Origin: Escherichia coli
GTDB lineage: Bacteria > Pseudomonadota > Gammaproteobacteria > Enterobacterales > Enterobacteriaceae
Assembly (NCBI RefSeq): GCF_044324785.1
Contig: NZ_CP172127.1
Length of the DNA stretch: 64,000 nt
Strand: one strand, 5' to 3'
This document shows, in pieces, positions 39,759 to 41,823 of the stretch. A model generated the notes under the pieces. That model had not been told where the DNA came from. It saw only the letters and a list, made by a program, of their open reading frames with translations, and searched no databases. How positions within the stretch are numbered: the stretch's first letter is position 1; every line of letters starts with the position of its first letter. A program made the position numbers and the translations under genes.

Positions 39759-40217
39759 TTATAGAGACAAGTCCTGCAGTCGCTCTGATAAGTCTCCAGT
39801 AGCCAACTGCTCTGCGTCGATATCTTCCTTGACCTGTTGATGCCAGGTTGTTTCATCCCACAGCTCAAACTTGTTGAACTGTCCAACCAGCATCACTTCT
39901 TTTGTCAGCCCGGCATGTTGCCGCAGTACTGGCGCGATTAACAATCGACCTGCGCCATCCATCTGACATTCGCTGGCATGACCTAACAGTAGGCGCTGCA
40001 CACGGCGCTCAACCGGGTTCATGCTCGACAGACGCGATAATTTTTGCTCGATAATTTCCCATTCAGGCAGGGGGTAAAGCAGCAGGCACGGGTGATGAAT
40101 GTCAATGGTGCAAACCATTTGACCGGCAGCGTTCTCAAGCAGCTGCTCCCGATAACGGGTAGGCACTGATAAGCGCCCTTTGCTGTCGAGATTGACTAAC
40201 GTTGCTCCCCGGAACAT
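39759..40217 (-). CDS. mraZ: Transcriptional regulator MraZ
   Basis: 152 aa from [26 protein letters not shown]. Track ORF trimmed to the ATG at 40217. Confidence 0.93.
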
Positions 40218-40230
40218 GCCAGCCTCACCC

Positions 40231-40300
40231 CTTATTCCCACTTTGCCCCACAATTTCCCACTGAAAGGAGTTTACGGAGCGGAGGAAAAGCTTGTCAAGC
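40231..40300 (-). promoter_or_regulatory. Pmra promoter and MraZ operator direct repeats
   Basis: Minus strand reads TTGACA-18 bp-TAAACT, followed by three GTGGG repeats at exact 10-bp spacing (plus-strand cccac at 40237, 40247, 40257) in the mraZ 5'UTR. Confidence 0.65.
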
Positions 40301-40818
40301 CAGTCACAAGGCATACCGAGGTAAAAAACCCGATGTTTACGGCTAATATCAGCGTTGTTTATTTTACGTCCAACGTGCGAAGCAAATTAACGTTATGAAT
40401 AGCTGTAAGAAAAAATCCCTCATCGTCATCACCGTTTTAAAATGACTAACTATTTTCCACAGCAAATATAAAGTGTCAGTTTGCGACGCGAGCGGCATTT
40501 TAGGACATATCTTCCCCGGTTAACAGTCCCTGTTGCGTCTGTGTGGCGCTTGATGCCAGCAGGTTTGCGCAAAAACAAAGAAAAGTGTTTGTTAAATCGG
40601 CAATTCATCTCTGCATGTAACAAAATAATGCAAAAACGCGCTGTCAATATCATTTAATTATTGTGAATTTCAGCAGGTGAGTTAATTAACGGGCGGGTTT
40701 AAAAGCATTTATCAATAATAGCCAGGAATAGTCTTATTTACTTTAAGGATATTGATGTCCATTCCCGTACTCAACGCGCCAGAGAGAAATTCACCTGGCG
40801 CGTATTTTTGTTCGCGGC

Positions 40819-41823
40819 TTAGCTACGGCTGAGCACGCCGCGGCGATAGAGATTACGTTTAATGCGCGTTAAACCAGGTTTTGGCTTACGCGGTTCGTCC
40901 AGGCTAGCCAGGACAATCTCCAGCACACGCTCTGCGACATCGCGGTGACGTTGAGCCACTGCCAGCACCGGGCACTGTAAGAAGTCGAGCAGTTCGTTAT
41001 CGCCAAAGGTGGCAATTGCCAGGTCAGAAGGCAGTTTGCCGTCACGACGTAGCGTGACATCCATCACCCCTTGCAACAACGCAAACGACGTTGTGAACAG
41101 TGCCTGCGGCATCGGATGCGTTTCCAGCCATTTTTCGAATAACTGGGCAGCCGCCTCCCGCTCATAGCTGTTGGCATAAAGGAAATGCACTTCGCGCGGA
41201 TCATCTTTCCAGGCAGTACGGAAACCTTGTTCACGCAGGAAGCTGACAGAAAGCTCCGGCAGTGCGCCAAGATAAAGTACCGTCTCGGCGGGAAACTTAC
41301 GTAACTCTTCCGCCAGCATTTCGGCATCATCCTGATCGGCACCAACCACGCTGGTGAAATGTTCACGATCGAGGGCGCGGTCCAGCGCGACAATCGGGAA
41401 CGGGTCGTTAGCCCAGCGTTGATAAAAAGGATGCTCAGGTGGCAACGACGTCGAAACAATAATGGCATCAACCTGACGCTGTAAAAGATGCTCGATACAA
41501 CGCATTTCGTTGTCGGGCTGATCTTCCGAGCAGGCAATCAGCAGTTGATAACCCCTTTGCCGCGCCTGGCGTTCAAGATAGTTAGCGATGCGGGTATAGC
41601 TGGTGTTCTCCAGATCGGGGATCACAAGACCAATAGAACGTGTGCGTCCAGCACGAAGCCCAGCTGCCACGGCGTTCGGGTGGTAATTGTGCTCACGCAC
41701 CACAGCCATGACTTTTTCAACGGTTTTGTCGCTCACACGGTATTGCTTCGCTTTGCCGTTAATAACATAGCTTGCAGTGGTCCGCGACACTCCCGCCAGC
41801 CGAGCGATTTCATCCAGTTTCAC
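40819..41823 (-). CDS. cra: Catabolite repressor/activator Cra (FruR), LacI family
   Basis: 334 aa starting [38 protein letters not shown] (HTH). Confidence 0.95.

Follow-up and report, generated by a model that had tools for sequence, protein, structure and literature searches.

Two same-strand sigma 70 promoters in series before one operon are known from the tandem P1/P2 pairs of rRNA and tRNA operons, and promoters of the rrn P1 type have a GC-rich discriminator and are controlled by guanosine tetraphosphate (ppGpp) and DksA. Phase-dependent DNA loops form between operators located ~90–115 bp apart, for example, in gal (OE-OI, with HU at the apex), lac (O1-O3), and the nag operators. The mra operon of Escherichia coli, Bacillus, and Mycoplasma is repressed by MraZ at three or more direct GTGG(G/T) boxes, which have a 10-bp period and are located directly 3' of the −10 element. 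The published MraZ operator is described as GTGG repeats with six-base spacers, at which MraZ autorepression occurs, and binding and repression by MraZ are known from the literature for E. coli K-12. In the dcw cluster of division and cell-wall genes of Rhodobacter sphaeroides, a 268-nt leader carries a Rho-independent terminator inside it, and a 206-nt small RNA (sRNA), UpsM, accumulates (PMC5089854). In the present study, we analyzed the 601-bp spacer between cra and mraZ (positions 40218..40818) in a 64-kb stretch of an E. coli chromosome, which is called the window below. We found a second promoter, named P_B, upstream of the known promoter Pmra, as well as conserved blocks, two of which (B and C) keep fixed distances from Pmra. 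The spacer is probably a tandem-promoter control region of the dcw cluster without a hidden gene.

P_B lies in conserved block B (Table 1). Cappable-seq, in which a 5'-triphosphate start is detected, placed a transcription start site (TSS) of K-12 at 89360, which corresponds to position 40491 of the window (the K-12 coordinate is 129851 minus the window coordinate) and is 6 nt past TAAAAT; its score was 9.4, compared with 27.2 for Pmra. All four TSSs on the mraZ strand, which is the plus strand of K-12 (window positions 40708, 40614, 40491, and 40261), are located 6–8 nt past a −10-like hexamer, which is TATTAT, TATTTT (block A), TAAAAT (block B), and TAAACT (Pmra), respectively. Furthermore, a genome-wide reporter screen reported two minimal promoters here, one at K-12 89547–89587, which is Pmra, and the other at K-12 89317–89357 (40534..40494 in the window), which covers the −35 and −10 of block B; a fragment of ~40 bp with only these two elements drives the reporter alone. 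A figure legend of the preprint describing this screen refers to the mraZ region as having "two distinct promoters". P_B thus initiates in vivo and works alone in a reporter, and it is of the ordinary sigma 70 tandem-promoter kind. Although P_B is present in these high-throughput TSS and reporter tables, no description of it was found in the literature searched.

An alignment of 42 diverse species showed no variation in CTGT of the −35-like element, in the −10, at the G/C positions of the discriminator, or in GTCGCAA, and no insertion or deletion was found between −35 and −10. TAAAAT matches the −10 consensus at five of six positions, including the A of position 2 and the T of position 6, and it is followed in all species by GCNGNNCGCG, a discriminator that is GC-rich as a feature of the sequence only. 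On comparative grounds, P_B is under purifying selection across Enterobacteriaceae. The poor −35, the 18-bp spacer, and a GC-rich discriminator whose second base past the −10 is C suggest that P_B may be sensitive to growth rate or to ppGpp/DksA. Like the P1 promoters of rrn and tRNA operons, P_B has a near-consensus −10, a GC-rich discriminator, and C at the second base after the −10, and it stands in series with a second sigma 70 promoter on the same strand before one operon. Unlike them, it lacks an obvious UP element and its −35 is poor, and it is the weaker member of the pair, located 230 bp upstream of the other one rather than ~120 bp as in rrn.

The second line of evidence is the conservation and spacing of the blocks. 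We retrieved 80 Enterobacteriaceae loci via MraZ, reaching down to ~85% MraZ identity (Yersinia and Serratia lie beyond this limit). Blocks were defined by MAFFT alignment and by an alignment-free 12-mer test, and the two methods agree. Besides Pmra, blocks A, A′, B, and C were obtained; every 12-mer of block A was found again, with two or fewer mismatches, in at least 90% of the 75 non-Escherichia loci. Identity to the window was 0.82–0.91 for A, B, and C, compared with 0.85 for the proven MraZ boxes, 0.565 at the four-fold degenerate sites of mraZ, which were used as a neutral proxy, and 0.33–0.54 in the variable parts of the spacer. At every locus, 100–103 bp separate the P_B −10 from block C, and 101–104 bp separate block C from the Pmra −35. 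B and Pmra are 202–207 bp apart in ~80 loci and in three more distant loci, which also retain blocks B and C. The distance between the TSSs of P_B and Pmra is 230 bp, or ~22 helical turns. Despite these fixed lengths, the DNA between the blocks has diverged freely. The distances from A to B (125–141 bp) and from the cra stop codon to A (132–310 bp), as well as that from the Pmra −35 to the mraZ ATG, vary. Since the B–C–Pmra distances are held while the cra–A and Pmra −35-to-ATG distances vary more, insertions and deletions between B and Pmra are selected against. The family-wide conservation of A, B, and C together with their fixed spacing appears to be new.

Table 1. Features of the cra–mraZ region. 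Positions are those of the window; identity is that of the non-Escherichia loci to the window; the last column gives the K-12 start site with its Cappable-seq score in parentheses. UTR, untranslated region.
Feature	Position	Strand	Sequence and layout	Identity	K-12 start site (score)
cra	40819..41823	−			
cra terminator hairpin	40772..40799	−	CGCGCCAG..CTGGCGCG, ~20 nt past the cra stop codon		
Weak E. coli-specific start site	40708..40720	−	−10 TATTAT 40720..40715; TSS 40708		89143 (6.2)
Block A	40612..40632	−	TTTGT-ATTATTTTGTTACAT; −10-like TATTTT 40627..40622; weak TSS 40614	0.82	89237 (2.1)
Block A′	40578..40597	−	(A)TTGCCGAATTAACAAACACTT; semi-conserved companion of block A; identity 0.62		
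Block B / P_B	40463..40527	−	−35-like CTGTTA 40526..40521; 18-bp spacer; −10 TAAAAT 40502..40497; discriminator GCCGC; TSS ~40491; transcript start CGCGTCGCAAAC	0.91 (discriminator and transcript start)	89360 (9.4)
Block C	40378..40416	−	TTTTTTCTTACAnnTATTCATAACGTTAATTTGC; 39-bp conserved AT-rich element midway between P_B and Pmra	0.85	
CRP-like site	40293..40308	−	TGTGA-CTGGCT-TGACA; one mismatch to the CRP consensus; overlaps the Pmra −35		
Pmra core promoter	40262..40298	−	TTGACA 40298..40293; 18-bp spacer; TAAACT 40274..40269; TSS A40262 or G40261	0.98	89590 (27.2)
MraZ operator	40237..40261	−	GTGGG at 40261..40257, 40251..40247, and 40241..40237; exact 10-bp period; begins at the TSS	0.85 (boxes)	
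Rest of the 45-nt mraZ 5' UTR	40218..40236	−	Shine-Dalgarno GGGGTGAGG		
mraZ	39759..40217	−			

According to the tandem-promoter reading, the order toward mraZ would be the cra terminator hairpin, two weak start sites (one E. coli-specific and the other in conserved block A), P_B, block C, and Pmra on the first MraZ box. No terminator-like site was detected in 40100..40950 by a scan for intrinsic terminators, which also misses the cra hairpin. Because there is no terminator, transcripts from P_B would read through Pmra to yield a minor mraZ mRNA with a leader of ~275 nt, and they would still pass the MraZ operator.

Several points weigh against the tandem-promoter reading. CTGTTA matches the −35 consensus at three of six positions, with 18-bp spacing, and a simple promoter scan did not call P_B. 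In a TSS map of lower depth, made for E. coli and Klebsiella, Pmra is the only promoter listed at this locus; thus, P_B is the weaker promoter. The TSS and reporter data for P_B are all from K-12; the window is identical to K-12 in the promoter and TSS stretch of P_B. Block C has no match to the motifs of LexA, PdhR, FNR, ArcA, Fur, or Cra or to boxA or the RfaH ops element. Finally, the role of block C might instead be played at the level of RNA, via an inverted GCGnnGCAAA/TTTGCnnCGC repeat, which is taken up with the RNA alternative below.

The scores of the upstream TSSs are low (2.1–9.4, compared with 27.2 for Pmra), which would fit a reading in which blocks A, B, and C bind transcription factors or nucleoid proteins that serve Pmra alone, and the upstream TSSs are by-products of AT-rich, −10-like DNA. 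The conservation of block B is operator-like in that it runs ~30 bp beyond the TSS, and other factors do bind the region: weak binding of PdhR upstream of mraZ has been published, and mraZ is among the targets of CRP in genomic SELEX (systematic evolution of ligands by exponential enrichment). However, the −10, the spacer length, and the GC-rich discriminator of block B are each invariant, which is the pattern of a promoter, and the 40-bp fragment with the block B −35 and −10 is active by itself in the reporter. Moreover, the blocks show no match to the known factor motifs tested. We therefore regard binding sites without a second promoter as an unlikely account of the whole set of blocks.

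Block C by itself is a putative protein-binding DNA site in helical phase with both promoters, because its distances from B and from Pmra vary by no more than ±2 bp, whereas the sequence in between changes freely. No TSS within block C is listed in the K-12 Cappable-seq data. A promoter in block C on either strand was rejected, since there was neither an acceptable −35/−10 spacing nor a TSS; an intrinsic terminator or attenuator at its T-run was rejected, since no conserved stem precedes the T-run; and a repeated element was rejected, since blocks B and C each occur in one copy per E. coli genome. Matches to the IHF motif had one or two mismatches only, and good matches in the motif scan were limited to a DnaA-like box, confined to E. 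coli, and the CRP-like site that overlaps the Pmra −35. Comparison by eye of blocks A and C with the motifs of OmpR, CpxR, RcsB, MalI, and H-NS was unconvincing. A semi-conserved TTTTAACG at ~40435..40442 (minus strand), ~25 nt upstream of the T-run, is an inverted repeat of CGTTAA in block C (40386..40393), and the distance between them is fixed in most genera. The TTTTAACG motif might serve as another half-site, or it might form the base of a hairpin.

A bolder extension of the tandem-promoter reading, which we consider doubtful, is that blocks B and C and Pmra form one phase-locked module of ~230 bp. A candidate protein on block C, perhaps together with the repeat GCGnnGCAAA…TTTGCnnCGC, would bend or loop the DNA, placing the growth-sensitive P_B and the MraZ-repressed Pmra under joint control; or the same repeat would close a regulatory leader RNA domain of ~112 nt. 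Similarly to the gal, lac, and nag loops, B, C, and Pmra are located at a fixed distance of ~102 bp (113–115 bp between −10-like elements), and the intervening DNA varies in sequence but not in length. In contrast to those loops, B, C, and Pmra share no repeated operator, except for the short inverted repeat GCGnnGCAAA, and looping at this locus is a conjecture.

The RNA alternative may also be stated without the module. The P_B transcript would be a functional leader or an sRNA derived from the 5' UTR, as UpsM is, in which the 5' end GCGUCGCAAAC pairs with the 3' part of block C (UUUGCnUCGC), closing a domain of ~112 nt that acts in cis or in trans. An sRNA would have its own start site at the P_B TSS, and UpsM provides a precedent for an sRNA and a long leader ahead of mraZ (PMC5089854). 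The long-range helix between GCGnnGCAAA of block B and TTTGCnnCGC of block C, with the candidate arms GCGUCGCAAA and UUUGCUUCGC, is pairable in 94.6% of the alignment cells, compared with 29–59% when the partner is slid. Five sequences have an A-U double change, which is weak covariation. The mean pairing probability of the helix is 0.57 in a 125-nt context and exceeds 0.5 in 25 of the 42 species, and the minimum-energy folds of sequences from several genera repeatedly contain similar hairpins around block C.

On the other hand, the probability of the helix is lower (0.32) when the full leader is folded, the double changes probably belong to one clade, and related sequences can exceed shuffled ones without any structure. 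A consensus structure of the P_B leader was rejected on both strands, since RNAalifold gave none (energy from −1.7 to 0). Folding z-scores around block C ranged individually from +0.8 to −3.2; their mean was −0.9 for the mraZ strand and nearly equal, at −1.0, for the opposite one. Because the signal is the same on both strands, it suggests DNA symmetry or base composition rather than RNA. Rfam gave no match in the spacer at E <= 10, and there was no terminator, as described above. No Term-seq 3' end is listed between K-12 83641 and 89783, although this list has low sensitivity and misses the cra terminator too. The likeness to UpsM is in the start far upstream of mraZ, with a leader of similar length (268 nt and ~275 nt from P_B), and in a leader sequence conserved within the family. 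It differs in that R. sphaeroides has no separate mraZ start site, whereas the main promoter of E. coli, Pmra, is separate and proximal, and in that the E. coli spacer has no terminator, detected 3' end, or conserved fold. UpsM may thus be viewed as a functional analogue of the P_B leader in position only. The long-range helix is a lead rather than a result, and a functional leader or sRNA seems to us improbable.

The possibility of a small protein was examined for the 67-amino-acid open reading frame (ORF) at 40450..40653 (minus strand), a 44-amino-acid ORF at 40364..40498 (minus strand), and shorter ones. The first-pass annotation, made from the sequence alone, had named the former as the sole ORF of the spacer. 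This was mistaken, since at least six others of 20 or more amino acids lie in or overlap the spacer, including one of 58 amino acids at 40481..40657 on the plus strand. Its remark that 40450..40653 lacks a ribosome-binding site and conservation agrees with our counts of ORF length and Shine-Dalgarno motifs. The presence of ORFs in the E. coli spacer, an ATG at 40498 in 79 of 80 species, and the hydrophobic C-terminus of the 44-amino-acid ORF could be taken in favor of a protein. However, ORFs in the frames of the 67- and 44-amino-acid ORFs range from 7 to 106 amino acids among species, with scattered starts and stops, a premature stop in Citrobacter, and a frameshift in Buttiauxella. A Shine-Dalgarno-like motif precedes the ATG at 40498 in 8 of 80 species, compared with 80 of 80 for mraZ, and this ATG is upstream of the P_B TSS, being part of the −10 and discriminator. 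All positionally conserved start codons fall within the conserved blocks and have no Shine-Dalgarno motif, and none of the three codon positions varies in the blocks, unlike in coding evolution. Conservation of an ORF family seen on clustering was discarded as an artefact of translating conserved DNA blocks. A small protein is therefore very unlikely.

Least credible of all is that only Pmra and the MraZ boxes are functional and the blocks are merely stretches that happened to diverge slowly. Nothing speaks for this beyond the absence of annotation, and it is contradicted by the block identities, by the spacing held across genera, and by TSS and reporter evidence that is independent of conservation.

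The earlier suspicion that the spacer hides something is thus borne out as regards cis-regulatory DNA, but not as regards a small RNA or small protein. Where the first-pass annotation had allowed for a spacer with no initiation signal besides Pmra and no further conserved blocks, we found three more TSSs on the mraZ strand, a second promoter in the reporter screen, and three further blocks.

On the minus strand of the chromosome, the gene order is ilvIH, cra, the spacer, mraZ, rsmH, and ftsL, and the spacer extends from the cra stop codon to the mraZ ATG at 40217. A match to it was obtained in 5,423 of the 5,426 complete genomes of E. coli, and it carries no annotation under the best matches listed among these genomes or in the K-12 RefSeq record, in accordance with the description of an AT-rich, non-coding stretch of ~600 bp without an identified gene (G+C content is 42.1%, compared with 52.6% for the whole window). 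The K-12 counterpart (89033..89633) differs at 16 positions, with no insertions or deletions. At all 80 loci, cra is upstream of mraZ, and the length of the spacer is 553–733 bp. In Escherichia sp. ESNIH1, the spacer is 716 bp long because of an inserted GC-rich palindrome that resembles a repetitive extragenic palindrome (−56.7 kcal/mol), located within the first ~100 nt past the cra stop codon. In Enterobacteriaceae bacterium ESL0689, an AT-rich symbiont, blocks A–C have been lost (positions 1160..1500 of its locus), while cra, Pmra, and the three MraZ boxes are kept; this natural deletion could reveal what blocks A–C are needed for.

Pmra and its three boxes are the published MraZ operator and autoregulatory system, and are already known. 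The promoter TTGACA-18-TAAACT noted at the outset is the best promoter-like match of the region, and the three GTGGG repeats at 10-bp spacing are indeed present: GTGGG-N5-GTGGG-N5-GTGGG occurs only once in the window, with 0.01 occurrences expected by chance. The Pmra TSS was mapped at K-12 89589/89590 by two independent maps, corresponding to 40262/40261 in the window, the latter being the first base of box 1; in a report on Mycoplasma genitalium, the start site is likewise within the first box. Autoregulation of the dcw cluster by MraZ, also proposed earlier, had been published before. We found no difference from the MraZ-repressed mra operons: the site is directly upstream of mraZ, and Pmra and the boxes were kept in all 80 loci and four further loci. 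The 5' UTR of mraZ from Pmra is 45 nt in two data sets, and likewise 45 nt in Klebsiella; it is given as 38 nt in the literature quoted with the UpsM work (PMC5089854). The loci form two classes according to how far the Pmra −35 is from the mraZ ATG, one with ~81 bp and one with ~91 bp (80–91 bp overall). The latter, found in Buttiauxella, Cedecea, and relatives, has an insertion of ~10 bp, equal to one box period, between MraZ box 3 and the Shine-Dalgarno sequence. The CRP-like site is centered ~38–39 bp upstream of the Pmra TSS, and its TGTGA half is confined to Escherichia and Citrobacter.

A strong hairpin is found at the position of the cra terminator in 21 species, with sequences that are not homologous. 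It was missed by the terminator scan because of its 12-nt loop and weak T-run. With an A-tract on the 5' side and a poor U-tract on the 3' side (40772..40810), it looks like a better intrinsic terminator on the opposite strand, where the hairpin is followed by TATTTTTGTT. The scan found no plus-strand promoter for such use, and a plus-strand sRNA ending there was rejected, since the hairpin is the cra terminator across species and the promoter scan gave no plus-strand promoter.

Some further observations concern single sites. The sequence around the start site at 40708 is not conserved. In Citrobacter youngae, a perfect hairpin, ACGTAACG-GCG-CGTTACGT (2554..2582 of its locus), is located directly 5' of block A, and because of it the T-rich beginning of block A is scored as an intrinsic terminator in this species; no such hairpin precedes block A in E. 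coli. Just 3' of block B, TGTGGAAAA at 40453..40461 (minus strand) fits the loose DnaA box TTWTNCACA and is one base off the strict TTATCCACA; this box is specific to E. coli, as other genera do not conserve it. Within mraZ, position ~40068 (K-12 89783), 149 nt into the gene, appears in the Term-seq list, as a 3' end, and also in the Cappable-seq list, as a "TSS", and stable RNA fragments ("decRNAs") from mraZ, ftsL, and ftsI have been reported in a published study. A sub-threshold Rfam match to "osmY RNA" in the 3' part of mraZ (39815..39882, minus strand; 19.9 bits compared with the gathering threshold of 46.9; E = 0.1) is probably due to chance, though the gene is reported to yield a stable RNA fragment.

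The practical gain from these results is modest, as P_B is already in public tables and the picture of MraZ autoregulation is unchanged. The dcw cluster contains most of the essential genes for division and wall synthesis, and Pmra with MraZ is usually taken as its sole 5' control point. The present analysis offers as targets a second promoter with rRNA-like features, a 39-bp element, and a fixed spacing of ~102 bp on either side of block C. If blocks B and C and Pmra do form a phase-locked module, it would couple the nutritional state to dcw transcription in Enterobacteriaceae.

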